From the NCBI GenBank assembly GCA_934096805.1, contig CAKOMW010000002.1, forward strand, positions 11,736 to 75,735: a DNA stretch of 64,000 nt, given 5' to 3'. Made by a program: the position numbers and the translations under genes. The DNA is from an uncultured Bacilli bacterium (GTDB taxonomy: Bacteria; Bacillota_I; Bacilli_A; RF39; UBA660). Positions 4,005 through 28,270 of the stretch are shown one piece after another. Below the pieces are notes generated by a model that saw only the letters and a list, made by a program, of their open reading frames with translations, did not search any database and was not told where the DNA came from. The first letter of the stretch is position 1. The number at the start of each line of letters is the position of its first letter.

Positions 4005-4916
4005 ATGCAACAAACAAAAGATATATTCAATAAAACAAAATATAATGATAAAATACTAAAAGAAAATTATACAAAAGCCTTAAATAATAAAAAAGTATTA
4101 CAACTAAGAGAAAGAATAAAAATTGAAGATCAAAAAATATACAAACATGTACCAAACTTAATTGACTCATCAATAGAATTTGATAACTGTCTAAACTGTA
4201 AAGGACTAGCTAATTGTCAAAATGAAATAAAAGGATACTGCTACTATCCAGAAATAAACGATGACCAATTAATCTTTTCCTACGTAGCATGCAAATATAA
4301 AAACAACGAACTAAAAAAAGAAAAATATAAGGAGAATATTGACCTGTACAATGTTCCAACATCAATAAAAAATGCCTGTATGAAAAACATCTATGTTGAT
4401 GATAAATCACGAATTGAACCAATAAAATACATAAACAATTACTATCAAAACTACCCAAATGAAGAAAAAGGGTTATACTTATATGGAAATTTCGGAAGCG
4501 GGAAAACTTACTTAATCGCAGCCCTTTTCAATGAATTCGCAAAAAAAGGAATAAAATCAACAATAATCTACTTTCCAGAATTCCTAAGAACCCTAAAAGA
4601 ATCATTTCAAGAAACAGAAAACACTTACAGTGCAAAATATGAATACATAAAAAAAACACCACTTCTTTTAATTGATGACATCGGCGCCGAAAACGTAACA
4701 CCATGGGGAAGAGACGAAATACTAGGAACAATTCTCCAATATAGAATGGACGAAAACCTTCCAACCTTTTTCACATCAAATCTATCCCTTGATGAACTAG
4801 AAAGCCATCTAGGAGCAACCAATAAAAACATAGACAAAGTAAAAGCAAGAAGAATAATCGAAAGAATAAAATACCTAGCAAAAGACATAAAGCTAATCGG
4901 AGAAAATCGAAGATGA
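4005..4916 (+). CDS. dnaI: Primosomal helicase loader DnaI (DnaC/DnaI AAA+ family)
   Basis: Cys-rich N-terminal Zn-binding region, Walker A GNFGSGKTYL, Walker B LLLIDDIGAE. SD AGGTGA precedes the ATG at 4005. Confidence 0.7.
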   Translation: MQQTKDIFNKTKYNDKILKENYTKALNNKKVLQLRERIKIEDQKIYKHVPNLIDSSIEFDNCLNCKGLANCQNEIKGYCYYPEINDDQLIFSYVACKYKNNELKKEKYKENIDLYNVPTSIKNACMKNIYVDDKSRIEPIKYINNYYQNYPNEEKGLYLYGNFGSGKTYLIAALFNEFAKKGIKSTIIYFPEFLRTLKESFQETENTYSAKYEYIKKTPLLLIDDIGAENVTPWGRDEILGTILQYRMDENLPTFFTSNLSLDELESHLGATNKNIDKVKARRIIERIKYLAKDIKLIGENRR

Positions 4917-6724
4917 AAAACAATCAAAACATTATAGAAACCACAACCAAAGAAGAATATAAACAAAAAAACAATATCAAAACCGAAGAAGAATTATTCA
5001 ACAACTTGCTAAATAATTTAAAAAACGAAATAAAATCCATATTTCAAGGAACAATATCCGAAAATAAATACCAAATAGTAATAAAAACCCTTAACTATTT
5101 AGATGAAACCCTAGAACAAATAGAACATAAAAAACAAATAAAAACAAAATATTTAAGAAAAATAAAACAAGACACCATAACCTACTTAAAGGAAACAGAT
5201 AAAACAAAACCAAAAGCCAATAAAAAAATAGAAATATATCAAAAAATAATAAATAGATTGGAAAACATTGAACTAAATATAAACTATAATAAAAACAAAG
5301 AAACAATCGATAACTATAACATCATAAAATATGTTCTAATCGACCTAAAAGACGCAAATATCAGTCAAAAAATAGTAAAAGAATATGGATACTTAATAAA
5401 TGCTTATAATCAAACCAATCAAAACATTATAAACCAATTGGTAAATGAATACATAAAAGAACTATATAACTACATGGACATTGAAATAAACTACGACCTA
5501 TGCTACTATGAATCAATAATAAACGCTATCTTTGAAAACAAAAAAATTATAATCGAAGAAAAGACACTAAAAGAAAACACAAATAAATGCTTAAAAATAT
5601 TAAAACATAACAAAAACATCGAAGAGAAAAAAAGAATAAAAATGTTTTATTGGATAAACCATTTAATAAACATGTTGAATGATAAAGAATACATTCCAAC
5701 AATAGAAACAATAAATAACCTCTATAATATCAGATTTTATTTTAAACAAGCTCTCCACGAGGAAGGAAGAATCTACTACCTGACTAATCTTACTAAAACA
5801 CCAACAAATCAAGAAGATTACATAATATCGATTGACGACGAAGACAACTATAATAGAGATGATGCTGTATCAATAGAAAAAGAAAATGAAAACTATAACC
5901 TAAAAATATACATATCAGACCCTAACACTTTCTGTACAATGGACTCTCTATTAATAAAAGAAGCTAGAAAAAGATCCCAAAGCATCTACCTAAGTGATAG
6001 AACAATAGAAATATTTCCTGAAAGTATAATAGAGAACTACTTATCATTAAATGAAGAAAAACAAAGACTAGCTAGAATTTATAACTACAAAATATCAGAA
6101 GACGGACAAATAATAGACTTCTACATAGAAAAATCACCAATCATTGTAAGCAAAAACCTATCATATGAAAAAGTGAACAACAACCAGTACAAAGACAAAA
6201 AAATAAACGAGACCTTAGAACAACTACACGAAATAAGAAACATTATAACCAAAAACTATAACATAAAAAATCAATCAAACAGCGAAACCTTAATTGAATC
6301 CCTAATGGTCTTTAATAATATTAACGTTGCAAGATACTTTAAACAACACAATCTCCCATTAATATATAGAAATTTCGAACTAAAAAAAATAAAAAATTTC
6401 GAAGACATCGATCCTCAAGACGAAAATACCAAAAAAATTATAAAAATAATAAATTCAATCACCAATCAAGCATACTTTTCAGACAAAGTATTTCACCACG
6501 ATGGTATAAATGAAGAATATTATTGCTATAGCACTTCGCCTAACAGAAGATACGCCGACATTCTAGTAAATGAATGTGAAGACACTCTATATTTTAATAA
6601 ACCAACCAACAAAGAATACTATGCCTTTGAAGAATACTTAAAAAAAGAAGCAGATTACTTAAATCAAAAAAACCTCCAAATAGCAGAATACTACACAAGA
6701 TATGCAAGAACCTTAAAAAGATAA
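4913..6724 (+). CDS. RNB-domain exoribonuclease (RNase II/R family)
   Basis: SIDDEDNYNRDDAVSIE...IYISDPNTF matches the RNB catalytic DxxxxDDA / HIADV-like region. 603 aa. ATGA overlap with the dnaI stop. Confidence 0.6.
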   Translation: MKNNQNIIETTTKEEYKQKNNIKTEEELFNNLLNNLKNEIKSIFQGTISENKYQIVIKTLNYLDETLEQIEHKKQIKTKYLRKIKQDTITYLKETDKTKPKANKKIEIYQKIINRLENIELNINYNKNKETIDNYNIIKYVLIDLKDANISQKIVKEYGYLINAYNQTNQNIINQLVNEYIKELYNYMDIEINYDLCYYESIINAIFENKKIIIEEKTLKENTNKCLKILKHNKNIEEKKRIKMFYWINHLINMLNDKEYIPTIETINNLYNIRFYFKQALHEEGRIYYLTNLTKTPTNQEDYIISIDDEDNYNRDDAVSIEKENENYNLKIYISDPNTFCTMDSLLIKEARKRSQSIYLSDRTIEIFPESIIENYLSLNEEKQRLARIYNYKISEDGQIIDFYIEKSPIIVSKNLSYEKVNNNQYKDKKINETLEQLHEIRNIITKNYNIKNQSNSETLIESLMVFNNINVARYFKQHNLPLIYRNFELKKIKNFEDIDPQDENTKKIIKIINSITNQAYFSDKVFHHDGINEEYYCYSTSPNRRYADILVNECEDTLYFNKPTNKEYYAFEEYLKKEADYLNQKNLQIAEYYTRYARTLKR

Positions 6725-6731
6725 AAAATGC

Positions 6732-6760
6732 TTGAAAAAAGTATTTTTTTGTTATAGAAT
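6732..6760 (+). promoter_or_regulatory. Sigma-A-like promoter (TTGAAA-N17-TAGAAT) of variable-family copy 1
   Basis: -35 TTGAAA at 6732-6737, 17-bp spacer, -10 TAGAAT at 6755-6760. The same architecture is conserved upstream of copies 2, 4 and 5. Confidence 0.45.
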
Positions 6761-6874
6761 TAGACTATAGAAAACTAAAAAGGAGGACAGGTGTAATTGT
6801 AGGTTATAATTATAAACCACATAATATCGGGTAAAATAATTCGAAAATTTACATTTATACACCTAACAAGCAAT

Positions 6875-8461
6875 ATGATAAACAAACATTCGTCTGGGGG
6901 GGGGCAAAATACTAACAACCCTATAAATAAAAAAAGAAAGATACTATACTTAGTAGCCTTATCAATGTTTAGCATAGGTATAATAACACTAAGCACTTAT
7001 GCACTATATAATAATGAACTAATAACAGGTATAAATAAAATAGAAACAGGACAAGTAAAAATGTCCTACACAGAAGTAAATGAACTAAGCTTAAACAACG
7101 CCCTACCTATGAAAGATGAAGAAGGTAAAAAACTTAACAATTACTTTGATTTTACTGTGTCATCATATATAAAAACAAAAACAGATGATAACAATGAACA
7201 AGTATTAAAATATAATATAATCCTAGAACCAACATATTTTTCCGCACTAGGACAATCAGCTTCCTTACAAGAAATATCTGCATCAGAAATGGCAGAATAT
7301 TATCGTATAATTAATTCGGTTTATCACTTCAAAACATATCTAACAAAAATAGATGACAATGGAACAGAAACAGAAGTAGCAAAGCCAATTAACGTTGAAG
7401 ATTTAAATGGAGTTATAACCCAACAACAAGAAACATTCAAAAACGCCAAAGAACCAGTAACAACAAAGTATAGGCTAAGAATTTGGATAGACTATGAAGT
7501 AGATGCCAACAGCATAGTATGGAAAAAATTAGAACAACTTGGAGGAGCAACAATAAAATTTAGAGTAAACGTAAACACAGACAAAATAGAGCAAACTACT
7601 ACTATACCAATACTTAATCTACCAGTAGGAACAAGCCAAATAAAAAAAGTAACTCATGGTATGAGCTATACTTTACAAGTAGATAATAGGTTTGCAACAG
7701 AATATAGATATCAAGGAACCGATCCTAACAACTACATAAAATTTAATAATGAACTATGGAGAATAATCGGAGTAATCCCAACCGATGATGGAACAGGTAA
7801 AGTAGAAAATAGATTAAAAATAATAAGAAATGAATCAATCGGAGAAATGCCATGGAATGCTTGTGAGTATTCAAATATTGGTAGTGATAGTAATCCTGTA
7901 TATACATGCAATGACACAGGTAAATTCCTAAATGACTGGACTGGATCAACCTTAAACACTTACTTAAACACAACTTATTACAATTCCCTAACCAAAGAAG
8001 CAAGAGACATGATAGGAACAACAAAGTATTATCTTGGAAGTTCAGGCGATGAATTTAATGATTACATATGGGAAGCAGAAAGGTCAAACGAAAGTAAAAA
8101 CTATTATTCATATAATGGTGTGAATAATCCCTTGTCAGAAACAAATAAAATATCACTAGTTTATCCAAGTGATATATATTACGGTTATAACTATGAAATT
8201 CCAATTTTATTATATCAAGCAGACTTATTATCTGTTTTTGAATATTCTAAGATTTTAAAATTGAATTGGAGCAAAACTGATTATGTAAAGACAAGCGTCG
8301 ATAGTAGCCATACGATCAACTTTAATGATGATATTCATGTAGATATCTTTGATAATATGGCAACCCCTTATGTGTATCCAGTCCTAAGTCTCTCATCTAA
8401 TGTAAAAATATCCGGAGGAACTGGAACAAGCACTGACCCTTATACCTTATCCCTTCAATAA
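6875..8461 (+). CDS. Poly-G phase-variable surface protein family, copy 1 (full-length, in frame). N-terminal signal anchor, conserved central WRIIG..PTxD..G.VENR..II module, C-terminal LSLSSNVKISGG.GTS..PYTLS.
   Basis: Continuous 528-aa ORF. N-terminal TM ILYLVALSMFSIGIITLSTYALY. Paralogous to the ORFs at 36.5, 44.6 and 60.2 kb. Confidence 0.7.
   Translation: MINKHSSGGGQNTNNPINKKRKILYLVALSMFSIGIITLSTYALYNNELITGINKIETGQVKMSYTEVNELSLNNALPMKDEEGKKLNNYFDFTVSSYIKTKTDDNNEQVLKYNIILEPTYFSALGQSASLQEISASEMAEYYRIINSVYHFKTYLTKIDDNGTETEVAKPINVEDLNGVITQQQETFKNAKEPVTTKYRLRIWIDYEVDANSIVWKKLEQLGGATIKFRVNVNTDKIEQTTTIPILNLPVGTSQIKKVTHGMSYTLQVDNRFATEYRYQGTDPNNYIKFNNELWRIIGVIPTDDGTGKVENRLKIIRNESIGEMPWNACEYSNIGSDSNPVYTCNDTGKFLNDWTGSTLNTYLNTTYYNSLTKEARDMIGTTKYYLGSSGDEFNDYIWEAERSNESKNYYSYNGVNNPLSETNKISLVYPSDIYYGYNYEIPILLYQADLLSVFEYSKILKLNWSKTDYVKTSVDSSHTINFNDDIHVDIFDNMATPYVYPVLSLSSNVKISGGTGTSTDPYTLSLQ
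6896..6904 (+). repeat. Homopolymeric G tract, n=9, in codons 8-10 of copy 1 (in-frame, ON)
   Basis: ATG ATA AAC AAA CAT TCG TCT GGG GGG GGG CAA AAT... reads through into the 528-aa ORF. Confidence 0.8.
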
Positions 8462-8491
8462 CATAAATTAAAACAATACATTATAAAAATC

Positions 8492-8515
8492 AAAAGTTCC
8501 AATCGGAACTTTTTA
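8492..8515 (+). terminator. Rho-independent terminator after copy 1
   Basis: Perfect 9-bp stem AAAAGTTCC / GGAACTTTT with loop AATC and a T-run. Confidence 0.6.
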
Positions 8516-8583
8516 AATTACTTTTCCTTGTCTTTTCCTAAAAAATATGATATAATTTACAAGTCGCATAAGAGGTGGTAAAA

Positions 8584-10401
8584 ATGGAAAATAAAAATGA
8601 AAAAATAATAAATATTGCAGTAGTAGCACACGTAGACGTAGGAAAATCAACCCTTGTAGACGCACTACTACAACAAAGCGGTTCCTTAGAAAAAGAAACA
8701 GACGAACATCAAATCATGGACAGTAATGACCTAGAAAAGGAAAGAGGAATAACAATCTATTCTAAAAACTGTTCAATAAGATACAAAGACTATAAAATAA
8801 ACATAGTAGACACTCCAGGACATGCTGACTTTTCAAGTGAAGTAGAAAGAATCATCAAAACCGTAGACACTGTAATCCTACTTGTTGATTCAGCTGAGGG
8901 AGTAATGCCTCAAACAAGATTCGTTCTACAACAAGCCCTAAAACAAAACCTTAATCCAATTCTGTTTATCAATAAAATAGATAAAAAAGACGCTAGAATA
9001 GACGACGTTGTAAACATGACATTCGATCTATTCGTTGAACTTGATGCCAATGACACTCAATTAGACTTCCCAATCGTCTATGGAATAGCACGTGACGGAA
9101 TTGCTAAACTTGACATCAATGACCCATCAAATGACATAACCCCACTTTTAGAAACAATCATAAATCACACCAAAGTATACGAAGGAAATGAAAACGACCC
9201 TTTACAACTACAAATATCATCACTAGAATACGATGATTACCTAGGAAGAATGGGAATCGGAAGAGTAACCAAAGGAATAATAAAAAGTGGAGAAATGGTA
9301 GCTATAAGCAAAAACAATAGTGAAATAATAAACAATCGTGTTGGAAAAATATTCGTAAACGAAGGAATAAAAAAGAAAGAAGTAAAAGAAGCAAGATACG
9401 GAGAAATAGTAACAGTTCAAACATATCCTGATATCAAAGTTGGAGACACAATTTGCGATGTAAACAATATAAATCCAATGGACCCAATTGAAATTGAAGA
9501 ACCAACACTATCAATGAACTTTCTAGTAAATTCATCACCATTCGCAGGAAGAAGTGGCAAATTCTTAACCAATAGACACATCAAAGAAAGACTTGACCGC
9601 GAACTAGAAACAAACGTCGGTCTAAAAGTAGAACCATTAGAAAACAGCGACGGATACAAAGTATCAGGACGAGGAGAACTACACCTATCAATTCTCTTAG
9701 AAAAAATGAGAAGAGAAGGCTACGAACTATCAGTATCAAAACCAGTCGTGCTTTTTAAAGAAGAAAATGGTATTAAAGAAGAACCATATGAAAAAGTAAT
9801 AATAAACGTTCCAAATGACTACAGTGGTACTATTATAAATGACTTAAACGAAAGAAAAGGAATAATGGAAGAACTATCAAACAATGAAAGCTACACCAAA
9901 ATAATCTTTTCCGTGCCAACTCGTGGTCTAATTGGATATCGTAGCAATTTCATAACTAATACCAAAGGTGAGGGAATAATGGTAAGAAGCTTCGATTCAT
10001 ACAAACCATATGCCGGTCCAATAAAAGGAAGAAAAAACGGAGTATTAGTTTCTTGCGAAAATGGTACAACAATGGCTTATTCTCTATACAATCTAAGCGA
10101 CCGTGGAACAATGATTGTATCCCCATCAACCGAAGTATATGAAGGCATGATAATAGGAATAAACAACAGAGACAACGACCTAAACGTTAACCCTTGCAAA
10201 AACAAACAATTAACAAACACCAGAGCAGCAGGAAGTGACGATGCCTTAACCCTAATAAACCCTAAAAAATTCACTCTAGAAGAAGCCCTAGAATTTATAG
10301 AAAACGATGAACTAGTAGAAATAACCCCAGACAGCATAAGACTAAGAAAAAAGATACTAGATGAAAAAGAAAGGTACAGAGTCCAATCTAAGAACTCTTA
10401 A
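8584..10401 (+). CDS. typA: Translational GTPase TypA/BipA
   Basis: G1 AHVDVGKST, DTPGHADF, NKID. EF-G-like domains. SD AGAGGTGG before the ATG at 8584. Confidence 0.9.
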   Translation: MENKNEKIINIAVVAHVDVGKSTLVDALLQQSGSLEKETDEHQIMDSNDLEKERGITIYSKNCSIRYKDYKINIVDTPGHADFSSEVERIIKTVDTVILLVDSAEGVMPQTRFVLQQALKQNLNPILFINKIDKKDARIDDVVNMTFDLFVELDANDTQLDFPIVYGIARDGIAKLDINDPSNDITPLLETIINHTKVYEGNENDPLQLQISSLEYDDYLGRMGIGRVTKGIIKSGEMVAISKNNSEIINNRVGKIFVNEGIKKKEVKEARYGEIVTVQTYPDIKVGDTICDVNNINPMDPIEIEEPTLSMNFLVNSSPFAGRSGKFLTNRHIKERLDRELETNVGLKVEPLENSDGYKVSGRGELHLSILLEKMRREGYELSVSKPVVLFKEENGIKEEPYEKVIINVPNDYSGTIINDLNERKGIMEELSNNESYTKIIFSVPTRGLIGYRSNFITNTKGEGIMVRSFDSYKPYAGPIKGRKNGVLVSCENGTTMAYSLYNLSDRGTMIVSPSTEVYEGMIIGINNRDNDLNVNPCKNKQLTNTRAAGSDDALTLINPKKFTLEEALEFIENDELVEITPDSIRLRKKILDEKERYRVQSKNS

Positions 10402-24102: not shown

Positions 24103-24660
24103 ATGATAAATGTAAATGATTTTAAGACAGGTATGACTATTCAATTCGACGGAAATATTTACACTATACTAGAATTTCAACACGTAAAACCTGGTAAAGG
24201 AGCTGCTTTTGTAAGAACAAAATTAAAAAACTTAAGAACCGGAGCTACAACAGAATATACATTTAACTCTGCTACTAAAGTAGAATTAGCAAGAATTGAA
24301 AGAAAACCAATGCAATATTTATACTCAACCGGAGACGACTATACATTCATGAATATGGAAGATTACTCCCAAATTGATATAAATAAATCTAATCTTGGAG
24401 ATGACATAAAATATCTAAAAGAAAATCTAGATGTAGATATAACTTTCTTCGAAGGAGAAATGTTAGGACTATCCCTTCCAGATAAAATAGAAATGGAAGT
24501 AACAACAACCGAACCAGGAGTAAAAGGAAATACAACTTCAAGTGCAATGAAAGATGCAACTCTTGAAACTGGCTACATTGTAAAAGTACCTTTATTCATA
24601 AACGAAGGAGAAAAAATATTAATATCTACTAAAGATGGAAAATATGTATCAAGAGCATAA
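24103..24660 (+). CDS. efp: Elongation factor P
   Basis: KTGM.I..DG..Y.ILEFQHVKPGKGAAFVRTKLKNL.TG, 185 aa. Confidence 0.9.
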   Translation: MINVNDFKTGMTIQFDGNIYTILEFQHVKPGKGAAFVRTKLKNLRTGATTEYTFNSATKVELARIERKPMQYLYSTGDDYTFMNMEDYSQIDINKSNLGDDIKYLKENLDVDITFFEGEMLGLSLPDKIEMEVTTTEPGVKGNTTSSAMKDATLETGYIVKVPLFINEGEKILISTKDGKYVSRA

Positions 24661-24733
24661 CTATTAAAAATAATATAAAAACAAAACCAAATATATTGCT
24701 ATATTTATAAAAATATAATACAATATATTTAGT

Positions 24734-24808
24734 GCAGATGTGGTTCAATGGTTAGAACATGGCCTTGCCAAGGCTAGGATGCGGGTTCGATTCCCGTCAT
24801 TTGCTCCA
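24734..24808 (+). tRNA. tRNA-Gly (anticodon GCC)
   Basis: Manually folded cloverleaf. Acceptor GCAGATG/CATTTGC (one G-U), D-stem GTTC/GAAC, anticodon stem-loop TGGCC-TTGCCAA-GGCTA, T-arm GCGGG-TTCGATT-CCCGT, 3' CCA encoded. Confidence 0.85.
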
Positions 24809-24848
24809 GAAGCAAAAATCGTCGCACCAAAGCGATGTTAATGATAAA

Positions 24849-24874
24849 ATCAATCAGAGATGATTGATTTTTTT
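24849..24874 (+). terminator. Hairpin ATCAATC-AGAGAT-GATTGAT plus T-run downstream of tRNA-Gly. It is duplicated at 27031-27055.
   Basis: Perfect 7-bp stem followed by TTTTTT. The same hairpin with a GAAA loop recurs 2.2 kb downstream. Confidence 0.5.
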
Positions 24875-25178
24875 GTCGTTTAAGAAAGGTGTTGATGATA
24901 TTATGATAAAAATAATCAAACAAGAAATTAAAATAAATCATGAACTTAAAAGTAAAGTTGAATGGGCTTGTAGGCTTAATAATACTAAACCTATTTTCAT
25001 TAATGGTAGTTTATTAAAATTAGAGCCTACCAATATAGGCTATTTAGAGCCTCATAGAGCAATTATTAATAACAAGACATATCTTTTATTCAATGGACAC
25101 GAATTTGCTTACTACAGAGATTTAAATACCAAAATAAAACTATCTGATTTAAAAGATTTCATTAAAAAACTAAAATAA
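24864..25178 (+). CDS. Hypothetical protein (104 aa). A decayed second copy lies at about 27094-27290.
   Basis: ORF with no recognisable domain. The N-terminal IKIIKQEIK.. region is repeated in a frame-disrupted copy. Confidence 0.4.
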   Translation: MIFLSFKKGVDDIMIKIIKQEIKINHELKSKVEWACRLNNTKPIFINGSLLKLEPTNIGYLEPHRAIINNKTYLLFNGHEFAYYRDLNTKIKLSDLKDFIKKLK

Positions 25179-25369
25179 TGACGAAATCTGTGTTATAACC
25201 CGACTTTTTCATTTAGTAACTGAAAAAGTCGGGAATAGTTTGCGAGATTTAATTTCACTTCCAACAGTTGGATATATACTATAAAATGTTGGTTGAATAT
25301 TGGATCTGGCAGATTAGTGATAAAATTCGTTGAAATTGTGATATAATTATATATAGGGGAAGATATACT

Positions 25370-25969
25370 ATGTTAGTAATTTTTGAGGGATTAGATAATT
25401 GTGGTAAAACGACGTTAGTTCAAATGATAAAAGAATATTATATGAAATTAGATATTCCAGTAGAAATTTCAAAAGAGTTTGAAACAAATATTGGTAAAGA
25501 ATTAAAGCAAATGGCAAAATAAGGAACATTAGATCCGATTTTAAAGGCTTATTTATTTGCAACTGATAGATATATAAGAATGAAAAATATTACTAATGAT
25601 GATTTTAAAGAAAAAATAATGCTGTTTGATAGATATGTACCTTCCGCCTTAGCTTATCGTATGGTAGAAGGTGTAGATAAGAATTGGGTGGCTAACATCA
25701 ATTCGATTTTTCCAAAGGCTGATCTTGGATTTTTTATTGATATCACACCAGAGGACTCTATTAAGAGAAATACTGATGCAAAATTTAATATTAAATCATC
25801 TGCCGAGCACTTAGCAAAAGTTAGAAATGCATATTTATCTATTATAAATGAGAATAACCTAATACATGTTAATGGAATGCAACCTATTGAGTATATATTT
25901 GATGAAGTAATTAGTAATATTGAGGAGTACAGAAAAAGATATGAAAAAAGATACGGAAAAAGAATTTAA
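25370..25969 (+). pseudogene. Thymidylate kinase (Tmk)-like gene interrupted by an in-frame TAA at 25521-25523
   Basis: P-loop VIFEGLDNCGKTT, then a stop, then LFATDRY (LID) and DRYVPSALAYR (DRY motif) continue in the same frame. Confidence 0.5.
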
Positions 25970-26540
25970 TAATTTAATAGAAAATATTAAAAAATGTGAA
26001 ATTTGCAAAGATAAGTTTGGATTTCAACCACATCCTATATTTTTAGGAAATATTAATTCAAAGATAGTTCAAATAAGTCAGGCTCCATCTGCTACCGTTC
26101 ATGAAACATTAAAACCATTTACAGATCAAAGTGGAAAAAAACTAAAATATGAGTGGTATATGATAGACGATGACACATTTTATAATCCAAACAATTTTTA
26201 TATAGCAGCTCTAGCTCATTGCTATCCAGGAAAAGATAAAAATGGAAATGATAAAATACCGCCAAAGATTTGTTATGAAACTTGGATAAGAAAAGAACTA
26301 GAATATATTAATAACAAAATTTATATAATAATTGGTGCAAAATCAGCAAAAGTGTTTTTTCCAAAGGAAAATTTTAATGAATTAATTTTTAAAGATAATT
26401 ACATAAATGGAAAACCAGCTATAGTGTTACCACACCCTTCTCCGCTTAATATAAAATGGTTCAAGGACCACCCAAATTTTATGAATAAAAGAATATTAGA
26501 AATTAGAAAAATAATAAATAATGTATTGGAGGAAAAATAA
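25920..26540 (+). CDS. Uracil-DNA glycosylase superfamily protein
   Basis: C.IC......FGF.P.PIF.G.....IV.ISQAPS motif-A region and the HPSPLN motif B. Confidence 0.5.
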   Translation: MRSTEKDMKKDTEKEFNNLIENIKKCEICKDKFGFQPHPIFLGNINSKIVQISQAPSATVHETLKPFTDQSGKKLKYEWYMIDDDTFYNPNNFYIAALAHCYPGKDKNGNDKIPPKICYETWIRKELEYINNKIYIIIGAKSAKVFFPKENFNELIFKDNYINGKPAIVLPHPSPLNIKWFKDHPNFMNKRILEIRKIINNVLEEK

Positions 26541-26855
26541 ATGATAGATTTAAAACAATTACAAAAAGATATTTATAAAAATAAATTGGATAAGGGATTT
26601 AATGTAACAGACATTAATAAAGAATTTTGCTTAACATATGGTGAAATGGCAGAAGCATACGAAGCTTGGAGAAAAAAACAAACAGACGTTGGAGAAGAAA
26701 TTGCGGATGTAGTAATATATTTGCTTGGCTTATCAGAGATTTTAAATGTAGATTTAGAAACCGAAATTTTAAAAAAAGTAAATAAAAATAAACATAGAAA
26801 ATATAAAATTATTAATGGGGTAAATACAAGAGTTAAAGAATACAAAGAAGAATAA
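26541..26855 (+). CDS. MazG-like nucleotide pyrophosphohydrolase (all-alpha NTP-PPase)
   Basis: EE.AE...AWRKK and EE.ADV..YLLGL divalent-cation-binding EExxE/D motifs. 104 aa. Confidence 0.5.
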   Translation: MIDLKQLQKDIYKNKLDKGFNVTDINKEFCLTYGEMAEAYEAWRKKQTDVGEEIADVVIYLLGLSEILNVDLETEILKKVNKNKHRKYKIINGVNTRVKEYKEE

Positions 26856-26968
26856 AACTTAAACCTGTTGATAAAAATATTAATATATTGTTACTAAAAT
26901 AAACAAATATGTTATACTATTAATAGATTGATTTAATCAATTACTTGTTTCTATTTTTTCGCAAATGA

Positions 26969-27300
26969 CCCATGTCATTGCTCCATTGACGAATCTGTTC
27001 GAACTATTTAGTTTGAACTCGATATATAGAATCAATCGAAAGATTGATTTTTTTGTGTCTTACAAAGAAATCATCCTAAAGAAAGTATGGTGTTTATGAT
27101 TAATATTATCAAACAAGAAATTAGAGTTTATTTGTGATTTTTGTAATACTACTCCTATATTTATAAATGGAAGTATTAGAAAAATTGATAAATCTAATTT
27201 GGCTTATGTTGAACCTCACAAAATAATTATCAATAATATAATGTTTCTTGTTTTTAATTATTCTAATGATGTTTATATCAAAAACTAAATTTTCTAATTA
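26969..27300 (+). repeat. Degenerate duplicate of 24793-25180 (tRNA-Gly 3'-end remnant + hairpin/T-run + decayed hypothetical ORF)
   Basis: CCCATGTCATTGCTCCA versus tRNA 3' CCCGTCATTTGCTCCA. Same ATCAATC..GATTGAT hairpin. MINIIKQEIR.. copy with frame disruptions. Confidence 0.55.
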
Positions 27301-27568
27301 GATTAGAAAAACTTATATCTGATTTATTTATAGGTGAAATAGTACAAATAAGCCTAGTTGTACTGCTTCGCTCTTTTTTAGTTTACACTTTTCAAAAAAA
27401 TTTACATTTATACCAATATATGATATGATAAAATAAAATAAAAACATAACTATTTATAATAATATATAAAGCAAAAAAATCCTAACACTTTATCAGTAAC
27501 AGTACTATAATAAAATTAAAAACAATAAATATAATAACCAAAAATTTAAATCTTAAGGAGATGATAAT

Positions 27569-28270
27569 ATGGCTTATATAAAATTTGAGAATGTCGACAA
27601 AACTTATAAAATGGGAGAAGTAAAAATAGAAGCTTTAAAAAATACTTCATTTGAAATAGAAAAGGGAGAATTGGTTTGCATACTAGGTCCATCTGGTGCT
27701 GGCAAAACAACATGTCTAAATATTTTAGGAGGAATGGATACCTTAACAAATGGTAAAGTTATTGTTGATGGTGTTAGAATAGATAAATTAAAAGAAAGAG
27801 AACTAATTAAATATAGAAGAAATGATATAGGATTTGTTTTCCAATTTTATAATTTAATTCAAAACATGAATGTGCTTGAAAATGTAGAACTTGCAACTCA
27901 ATTATGTAAAGACTCTTTAGAACCAAACTTAATTTTAAATAAAGTAGGCTTAAAAATGAGAAAAAACAATTTTCCTTCTCAACTTTCAGGTGGTGAACAA
28001 CAAAGAGTTGCTATAGCAAGAGCAATATGCAAAAATCCTAAATTATTATTATGTGATGAACCAACTGGAGCATTAGATTATAATACAGGAAAACAAATCC
28101 TAAAACTATTACAAGATACATGCAGAAATGAAAAAATGACAGTTATTATTATTACACACAATTCAGCAATAAGCCCAATGGCAGACAAAATAATAAAATT
28201 TAAAAACGGTTCTGTTAGCGATGTTATTATAAATAAAAAGCCAAAAAGTATTGAGGATATTGAGTGGTAA
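27569..28270 (+). CDS. ABC transporter ATP-binding protein (MacB/FtsE-LolD-like)
   Basis: Walker [11 protein letters not shown]-loop, signature [14 protein letters not shown], Walker [13 protein letters not shown]. Confidence 0.85.

Follow-up and report, generated by a model that had tools for sequence, protein, structure and literature searches.

A tRNA-Gly islet in an uncultured gut Bacilli genome: a probable tandem array of two decayed large serine recombinase elements

In staphylococci, SCCmec and psi-SCC are small cargo cassettes inserted at the 3′ end of one conserved gene by serine recombinases (Ccr), as is the Enterococcus cassette chromosome; composite tandem arrays are common in these cassettes (SCC, staphylococcal cassette chromosome), and so are pseudo-cassettes without a recombinase. 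Cis-mobilisable elements (CIMEs) are defined as having lost their integration and transfer genes while keeping attL and attR (PMC5704250). The ssrA islands of Dehalococcoides combine a serine-recombinase module by attL, a tRNA-like 3′ end and 20-bp repeats; they stand in tandem, and some, which have no integration genes, were suggested to be CIMEs (PMC3146451). The tycheposons of Prochlorococcus are targeted to tRNA genes and flanked by partial tRNAs, with older inserts pushed inward and remnants accumulating, and a minority of them use a large serine recombinase (LSR) (bioRxiv 10.1101/2020.12.28.424599). Here we analyse an islet of 2.2 kb that lies 3′ of a tRNA-Gly(GCC) gene in contig CAKOMW010000002.1 of an uncultured Bacilli bacterium, within a stretch of 64 kb (hereafter the window) that has 29% GC and genes nearly all on the plus strand. 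Loci compared with it carry L-numbers: L126, L127 and L130 are viral contigs, and L057 is Clostridium sp. CAG:628.

The islet is a decayed, CIME- or psi-SCC-like remnant, and in this respect an ordinary kind of islet. Like the CIMEs of ICESt1-type Streptococcus islands, it has lost the integration gene, has kept attL and attR (arms 91-94% identical to those of LSR-bearing copies) and is arranged in tandem at a tRNA 3′ end, in an array that would likewise have been built by repeated site-specific insertion and then deletion. Unlike classical CIMEs, which have tyrosine integrases and a conjugative origin, the elements here belong with an LSR, measure only ~4.2 kb and have no transfer genes. The likeness drawn to SCC is one of architecture; those elements are larger, use ccrAB pairs and target rlmH (orfX), whereas the target here is a tRNA gene. 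The Dehalococcoides islands differ in their six-gene reverse-strand module, tmRNA target and reductive-dehalogenase cargo, compared with a two-gene forward module here (a 91-aa open reading frame (ORF) and the LSR gene), and the tycheposons in having mostly tyrosine recombinases, replication genes and hosts from a different phylum. In the LSR modules of temperate phages (phiC31, Bxb1 and TP901-1 type), as in L127, the LSR gene adjoins attP downstream of lysis genes, whereas the window element is without any phage genes. The islet represents a family of very small LSR elements that is widespread in uncultured human-gut Bacilli and apparently undescribed.

Comparison of the window with its relatives indicates that the locus very probably consists of two decayed integrative elements in tandem, both from one LSR family and both at the 3′ end of tRNA-Gly(GCC). 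A preliminary description of the window had instead proposed one integrated element bounded by a decayed duplicate of the tRNA 3′ end, its terminator hairpin and the downstream ORF. The tRNA-like 17-nt end, the second hairpin and the broken ORF on which it relied are all present. The order along the window is tRNA, element 1 (LSR deleted), element 0 (left end only) and an ABC transporter, with the following features.

24734-24808, plus strand: tRNA-Gly(GCC), just after efp (ARAGORN; Rfam, 67 bits; the only tRNA by ARAGORN)
24809-24902, plus strand: P′ (left) arm of element 1, starting GAAGCAAAAATCGTCGCACC..., with a hairpin plus T7 and the ribosome-binding site of the small ORF
24903-25178, plus strand: 91-aa ORF, conserved throughout the family, where it separates the att arm from the gene for the serine recombinase
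25199-25233, no strand: palindrome of 35 nt at the deletion scar, replacing 2,065 bp
25234-25369, plus strand: conserved segment 3′ of the LSR gene site and 5′ of the cargo, with a likely extended -10 promoter TGaTATAAT at ~25339-25347
25370-25969, plus strand: dTMP kinase (tmk) pseudogene, S51* nonsense, TAA at 25520-25522
25941-26540, plus strand: uracil-DNA glycosylase (UDG)-superfamily protein, 199 aa, intact (PF03167, 7.5e-21)
26541-26855, plus strand: MazG-like all-alpha nucleoside triphosphate (NTP) pyrophosphatase, 104 aa, intact (PF12643, 1.8e-7; phrog_3301, 2.9e-13)
26885-26985, plus strand: P (right) arm of element 1, ending in the tRNA-like CCCATGTCATTGCTCCA (26969-26985)
26986-27096, plus strand: left (P′) arm of element 0, starting TTGACGAATCTGTTCG..., with a hairpin plus T7 at 27030-27054
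~27097-27290, plus strand: decayed small-ORF homologue of element 0, with an internal deletion and the C-terminus gone
27330-27380, plus strand: putative remnant of the segment between small ORF and LSR gene in intact elements, similar by eye to L038 8326-8370 (gtgaagtagtatttataacctaaatattgcttcgccctttttt)

Exact-sequence lookup with the elongation factor P (EF-P) of the window returned ten human-gut metagenome contigs in which the upstream genes are the same. In L002 and L004, where EF-P is identical and the flanks are 96-99.9% identical (blast), the tRNA ending ...GCTCCA is followed directly by TTGA(G/C)GAATCTGTTCG..., corresponding to window 26986 onward. Since these strains, for all their identical EF-P, are without exactly 24809-26985, the left arm of element 1 included, this segment is an insertion. 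The empty sites, in which tRNA-Gly is joined straight to the downstream flank, thus bear out the proposal that an element was inserted at the tRNA 3′ end. They also speak against the scenario named as its potential refutation, an ancient tandem duplication with the 2.2 kb present in all relatives. An extra segment of 1.3 kb lies between the tRNA and the islet in L003, L013, L014 and L018, and L006 has yet another variant at the site. Together, the empty sites and the extra inserts demonstrate that the site is polymorphic and holds tandem inserts. The extra insert (L003 10707-12004), a third element, is recombinase-less and encodes an Xre-type regulator (171 aa) and a 100-aa protein on the minus strand; it has its own terminator hairpin after the tRNA and a right boundary reading ...gggCTCCA. 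PADLOC and PHROGs scans took in the cargo, the small ORF and both genes of the L003 insert, and reported no defence or phage family for the UDG or the small ORF.

The ends of element 1 are equally well defined. In the junction comparison, the final tRNA bases GCTCCA (24803-24808) are the common core at which every family junction diverges. A pattern search with the right end (26885-26985) detected 65 metagenome loci and one viral contig. In the 65 loci, more than 25 different sequences lie beyond the P arm, every one of them departing right after the GCTCCA of tRNA-Gly genes, and the junctions of L016 and L057 agree with this divergence point. Many flanks beyond the P arm start with a plain terminator hairpin. 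Taken with the empty sites, the element has discrete ends joined to unrelated flanks at one target. The 12-mer GTCATTGCTCCA taken alone is weakly significant (10 of 100 shuffles match at ≤1 mismatch), and the tRNA-like repeat is validated by its colinear order and by conservation across genomes, with a ~26-nt end shared by the 65 metagenome loci and the viral contig. The three cargo genes are carried, at 94-99% amino acid identity, by 16 of the 65. In the first 12 nt past GCTCCA (L131-L195), many of the flanks share a loose WTTGAAAT / TTGAcGAATC motif, which may be the B′ half-site recognised by the recombinase.

The left arm of element 1 contains hairpin A (AATCAATC/GATTGATT followed by T7) at 24848-24875, with 8-bp stems at 24848-24855 and 24862-24869 (dG -13.3 kcal/mol, z -4.1), which would probably terminate the tRNA transcript. 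A near-identical left arm stands 3′ of other tRNA-Gly genes in L057, L050 and L200, and the arm is also found 3′ of attP-like junctions in the viral contigs L126 and L127. An Rfam scan of 24500-27700 detected the tRNA only. The generic promoter and terminator scan was uninformative in DNA of 26-29% GC (19 promoter-like sites against 25 expected), and AT-rich hairpins such as these fall outside its G+C rule for terminators.

Searches with tblastn detected no LSR anywhere in the 64-kb window, in keeping with the earlier observation that no integrase remains. The intact counterpart is L057, where tRNA-Gly(GCC) is followed by the arm, the small ORF (97%), a 615-aa LSR (PF00239, 5e-35; PF07508, 2e-16; phrog_95 integrase), tmk, UDG, MazG and the same right end. 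By blast, window 24731-25198 matches L057 9829-10296 (94%) and window 25234-26985 matches L057 12362-14100 (93%), so that the window copy is without the 2,065 bp (L057 10297-12361) that carry the LSR gene. In their place stands the palindrome, with 17-nt arms that are 94% complementary (dG -18.8, z -5.2), and it is found only in window-type copies. The full element of ~4.2 kb, with the same layout, also occurs in L152 and L200-L203; the L200 copy is at tRNA-Gly(TCC) (4411-8604), followed by an ordinary terminator flank. The LSRs of these trio elements (L057, L152, L200) are 604-615 aa long. Since the LSR gene is absent here and present in sister copies, the window copy is a derivative and not an autonomous member. 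By this comparison, the missing integrase is an LSR, and neither an unknown nor a tyrosine-type enzyme.

The 91-aa ORF provides a second link to serine recombinases. When an alignment of the small ORF was scanned against 185,579 species genomes, 142 relatives were found in metagenome-assembled genomes of uncultured gut ‘Bacilli’, ‘Mollicutes’ and ‘Tenericutes’ and also in Clostridium sp. CAG:302, 524, 609 and 628. Gene order was inspected at 84 small-ORF loci, most of which follow the order tRNA, ~100 nt, small ORF and a serine recombinase of 570-663 aa; the tRNAs are Gly-GCC, Gly-TCC and sometimes Leu or Phe. Where an intact integrase follows the small ORF, as in most of the 84 loci, it is a serine and not a tyrosine recombinase. 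Resolvase and Recombinase domains and a Cys-rich zinc-ribbon-like stretch, the domain set of phage large serine integrases, are present in the LSR. A close homologue of the 91-aa ORF (P0135) lies 3′ of tRNA-Gly(TCC) in L038-L045 and is followed by an internally deleted Resolvase-domain gene. In the 50% library the family counts 697 representatives. Pfam, PHROG, PADLOC and PDB offer no match for the 91-aa ORF, and among longer small-ORF relatives Pfam detected only fusions to host gene fragments (SIS, Trigger_C).

On the other side of the deletion scar, segment 25234-25369 is ~80% identical to the region preceding the Xre gene in L006 and L038. The extended -10 promoter within it was read from the sequence, the promoter scan having failed to pick it up. 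Positions 25255-25310 (L038 9020-9075), which are ~80% conserved even where the cargo differs between elements, hold repeated GTTGGAT/CCAACnGTTGG motifs and may have a regulatory or operator role.

Viral contigs carry the same integration module. In L127, genes for tape measure, tail and amidase lead directly into an attP-like junction (...ctgCTCCA|gaagcaaaaatcg) and an LSR that is 98% identical, and in L130 the P arm (102 nt, 91%) closes a prophage 3′ of an endolysin with CHAP and CW_7 domains. Based on the L127 LSR and the L130 P arm, the integration module is of the temperate-phage type. What the mini-elements retain is limited to phage-type ends, small ORF and LSR, and these frame 1-4 kb of cargo, which in sister elements consists of an N6/N4 methylase with a RAMA domain, a 535-aa HNH protein, a KAP NTPase, a GNAT protein, an Xre regulator and uncharacterised proteins. 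Both L130 and L126 hold further genes of note. L130 encodes a reverse transcriptase (6473-7543; RVT_1, 1e-17) ~1.2 kb upstream of the endolysin, which may belong to a diversity-generating retroelement. In L126 (1-9826, IMG/VR), the small ORF and LSR are preceded by genes for a further serine integrase, a DNA methyltransferase, a helicase and a protein of 1,203 aa; rather than a phage, the contig resembles an island array, possibly a defence system.

Beyond the P arm of element 1, the second hairpin and ORF proved to have a different origin from the one first assigned to them. Hairpin B has the same AATCAATC/GATTGATT plus T7 composition, with stems at 27030-27037 and 27042-27049 (dG -10.9 kcal/mol, z -3.7). 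The small-ORF remnant behind it is 46% identical to the 91-aa ORF over 56 aa (tblastn, E 8e-15), and the two small-ORF/arm copies of the window share ~67% nucleotide identity over 173 nt. The element 0 arm with its hairpin also occurs in L038, where it stands 3′ of tRNA-Gly(TCC) and an intact small ORF and then an LSR remnant come behind it, and the arm occurs 3′ of the P arms of other elements in L159, L177 and L192. In L162, too, the right end of another element comes first; the arm behind it is a related one that diverges after ~23 nt and precedes a small ORF plus an intact LSR, whose subtype is 40% identical. Because the arm recurs after another tRNA and after other P arms, 26986-27290 is the left end of an older related element and not duplicated host DNA. 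The hairpin and ORF of the ‘decayed duplicate’ were therefore correctly observed, and their attribution to the host was not. The presence of this older left end makes the locus a tandem array. The same arm stands directly 3′ of the tRNA in the ‘empty’ strains L002 and L004, which keep another fragment of the element 0 small ORF (the C-terminal part ...KIKINELEDYLKHTN*). Since these strains also carry element 0, with the small ORF differently deleted, it is fixed in the species. The last recognisable piece of element 0 is 27330-27380, where the resemblance was judged by eye.

These observations suggest the following course of events. An intact member is ~4.2 kb long and consists of the tRNA end, a P′ arm with terminator hairpin, the 91-aa ORF, the LSR gene, a promoter, tmk-UDG-MazG and a P arm of ~100 nt. 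The LSR would recombine attP (P arm plus P′ arm) with the tRNA end, with a crossover that the workings of LSRs would place within or beside GCTCCA; the tRNA would stay whole and gain a new terminator, and the P arm would be left as the ‘remnant’ at the far end. Element 1 (24809-26985) would have landed between the tRNA and the left end of element 0 (26986 to ~27380), and it is because this left end lies there that the second hairpin and the broken small ORF are found behind the remnant. Subsequently, element 1 would have lost 2,065 bp with the LSR gene, the 35-nt palindrome being the scar, and without this gene it cannot move on its own. The tmk nonsense codon would have come later than both the insertion and the LSR loss. 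The surviving cargo, an Fe-S UDG-family protein and a MazG-type NTP pyrophosphatase, is most likely expressed from its own promoter.

Several points weigh against this reconstruction. Where the crossover is placed, how attP is drawn and what role the LSR is given all derive from junction comparison and general knowledge of LSRs. These recombinases are normally strict for attP x attB, and insertion beside a resident arm would therefore require tolerance in the B′ half-site or some other route. Among the loci compared, none was a virgin site of the species, so the right limit of element 0 is undefined. On the side of the cargo, motif A of the UDG (SQAPS) is atypical and its nearest solved structure, 3ikb, is uncharacterised.

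It is possible, although on balance doubtful, that the islet is still cis-mobilisable: keeping both att ends, it would be moved in trans by a related LSR or travel along with an element next to it. In L016, a palindrome-bearing, LSR-less islet is 99.2% identical to the window over 1,868 nt and has a different right flank, departing 2 nt past GCTCCA (the flanks share TT, so that homology stops at window 26987). Presence/absence polymorphism among strains with identical EF-P is consistent with such movement, as is the circulation in the same habitat of LSRs of the same type (98% identical), and mobilisation in trans is documented for CIMEs and for the Dehalococcoides ssrA islands (PMC5704250, PMC3146451). 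However, L016 is a single metagenome contig of 10.9 kb without the left junction, in which a chimeric join inside the highly similar cargo is possible, and the palindrome version is found in none of the 65 metagenome P-arm loci. The window contains no LSR that could act in trans, and the one at the tRNA-Gly(TCC) locus (L038-L045, not necessarily from the organism of the window) is itself internally deleted. If the palindrome version were to excise, the expected circular junction would be …CATTGCTCCAGAAGCAAAAATCG; ...CATGTCATTGCTCCAGAAGCAAAAATCG.

Whatever its mobility, the cargo of element 1 was identified as first described: profile searches upheld the assignment of all three genes (tmk, UDG superfamily, MazG-like). 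The tmk product reaches 102 bits with TIGR00041 (cutoff 83.25) and 1.4e-28 with PF02223, and has the P-loop GLDNCGKT; despite the TIGR00041 score, the window does not contain a dTMP kinase with an intact frame, as TAA stands at codon 51, which is TCA in the intact copies of L003, L013, L014, L016, L018 and L019. An alternative genetic code was considered for this TAA and rejected, because TAA closes neighbouring genes such as efp and MazG and the codon is TCA in sister copies. The UDG gene overlaps tmk. Its product matches PDB entries 3ikb (4.5e-16) and the family-4 UDG 1ui0 of T. thermophilus (1.7e-5), and its four Fe-S cysteines align with those of 1ui0 (C-x2-C...C...C); motif A is SQAPS versus GE[AG]PG in family 4. 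With TIGR00758 (family 4) it scores 32.8 bits against a cutoff of 125, while membership of superfamily PF03167 holds, and we classify it as a putative family-4-like UDG with an atypical motif A. The MazG-like protein scores 31.8 bits with PF12643 (cutoff 27) and contains the EXXE...EXXD motif (GEMAEAYE...VGEEIADV, read from the protein); its nearest structures are 4qgp and DCTPP1.

Between the window and L057 lineages all four genes bear the mark of purifying selection, with omega values of 0.08 (small ORF), 0.10 (tmk), 0.06 (UDG) and 0.13 (MazG); for the cargo, omega spans 0.05-0.13, and UDG and MazG have stayed intact. Along the recent branch leading to L179, by contrast, 6 non-synonymous changes in tmk stand against 1 synonymous change. 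TAA nonsense codons interrupt tmk at codon 51 (window), codon 32 (L057, ~12590) and E174 (L199-L203, ~7520), the gene is split in L133, L155 and L193, and it is broken independently in at least five copies besides the window. The E174* version (P0352) occurs in 552 index blocks and was on the trio element in all five contexts inspected. UDG is intact in every copy inspected, and MazG is broken only in L019 and L193. The repeated breakage of tmk, and never of the overlapping UDG gene, suggests that the extra tmk is dispensable or costly. The LSR gene has also been lost independently, in L142 (deletion from the middle of the small ORF), in L160/L183 (LSR C-terminus only) and in L179.

In another gut species (L196-L198, 5742-7841) the trio is a chromosomal operon, 79.6% identical at the nucleotide level from the promoter to the MazG stop. 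The operon begins ~180 nt 3′ of tRNA-His(GTG), and a short gene for a nucleoside 2-deoxyribosyltransferase comes after it; it is without small ORF, LSR or P arm, and homology with the window begins at 25321. Either the cargo derives from this chromosomal operon or the operon is itself an insert that has become fully domesticated; probably a chromosomal operon in related bacteria supplied the cargo or can exchange with it. The likeliest role of the trio is in nucleotide-pool and uracil hygiene, as an operon that a host with a tmk of its own could dispense with.

The preliminary description had called this gene combination typical of phage modules and recurrent in nucleotide-depletion anti-phage systems, and neither statement was supported. 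The UDG has 982 homologues, those at 75-90% identity being single chromosomal genes in many relatives; it has no relative in IMG/VR and only 25%-identity matches among INPHARED phages, and PHROGs offered no phage family for the UDG or the small ORF. PADLOC gave no match for UDG, MazG or the small ORF and only a weak one between tmk and the candidate PDC-M51B (5.4e-7), so that none of its models of known anti-phage defence, nucleotide depletion included, describes the cargo proteins. We therefore consider it unlikely that the trio is an anti-phage module, for example one that excludes uracil-containing or modified-base phage DNA or depletes its precursors. Such a role would suit the chassis of small ORF, LSR and P arm, which elsewhere carries defence-type cargo (the N6_N4 methylase with RAMA domain, next to a HinfI-type gene; the HNH protein; the KAP NTPase), it would fit the weak PDC-M51B match, and by our own reasoning the three activities are coherent for keeping uracil and odd nucleotides out of DNA. 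Nevertheless, in another species the trio is a stable chromosomal operon, the close UDG homologues are chromosomal singles, tmk is repeatedly inactivated, and a search of one literature library on the trio with phage retrieved no paper linking the three genes.

A more ambitious combination of these ideas would make the 4.2-kb elements minimal LSR ‘cassette shuttles’, in which the 91-aa protein is an accessory or directionality factor, the trio protects against phages with uracil or hypermodified thymidine, and LSR-less copies hop in trans; we regard this as decidedly improbable.

That the locus is a classical tRNA island, for instance one with a tyrosine integrase, in which the tRNA 3′ end was duplicated and the second hairpin and ORF are displaced host flank, is very hard to sustain: the architecture is like that of tRNA islands, and in the ‘empty’ strains the tRNA is indeed followed at once by the second hairpin, yet the arm with hairpin and small ORF recurs after another tRNA and after the ends of other elements, always ahead of small-ORF/LSR genes, and the recombinase of every intact relative is of the serine type. 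A local, ancient tandem duplication of the region downstream of the tRNA, or homologous recombination through flanking homology with no site-specific insertion, would suit the divergence of the two window copies and is scarcely credible given the clean presence or absence at GCTCCA, the right end on so many unrelated flanks and the LSR in sister copies.

Read as a tandem array of LSR elements, the locus offers a readable attB (tRNA-Gly ...GCTCCA), attP arms and a conserved 91-aa gene as material for mining serine integrases and directionality factors. The family forms a natural series for tRNA islets, from tandem insertion to repeated independent loss of the recombinase, each in a different lineage, and it documents a trio operon that moves between chromosomes in AT-rich bacteria with reduced genomes. 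Near the trio element in L200 (9118-11068) and L203 (11779-13729), the opposite strand carries genes for HMUDK_hel (5-hydroxymethyldeoxyuridine (5-hmdU) DNA kinase-like) and a radical SAM/SPASM protein, a pair reminiscent of thymidine-hypermodification genes.

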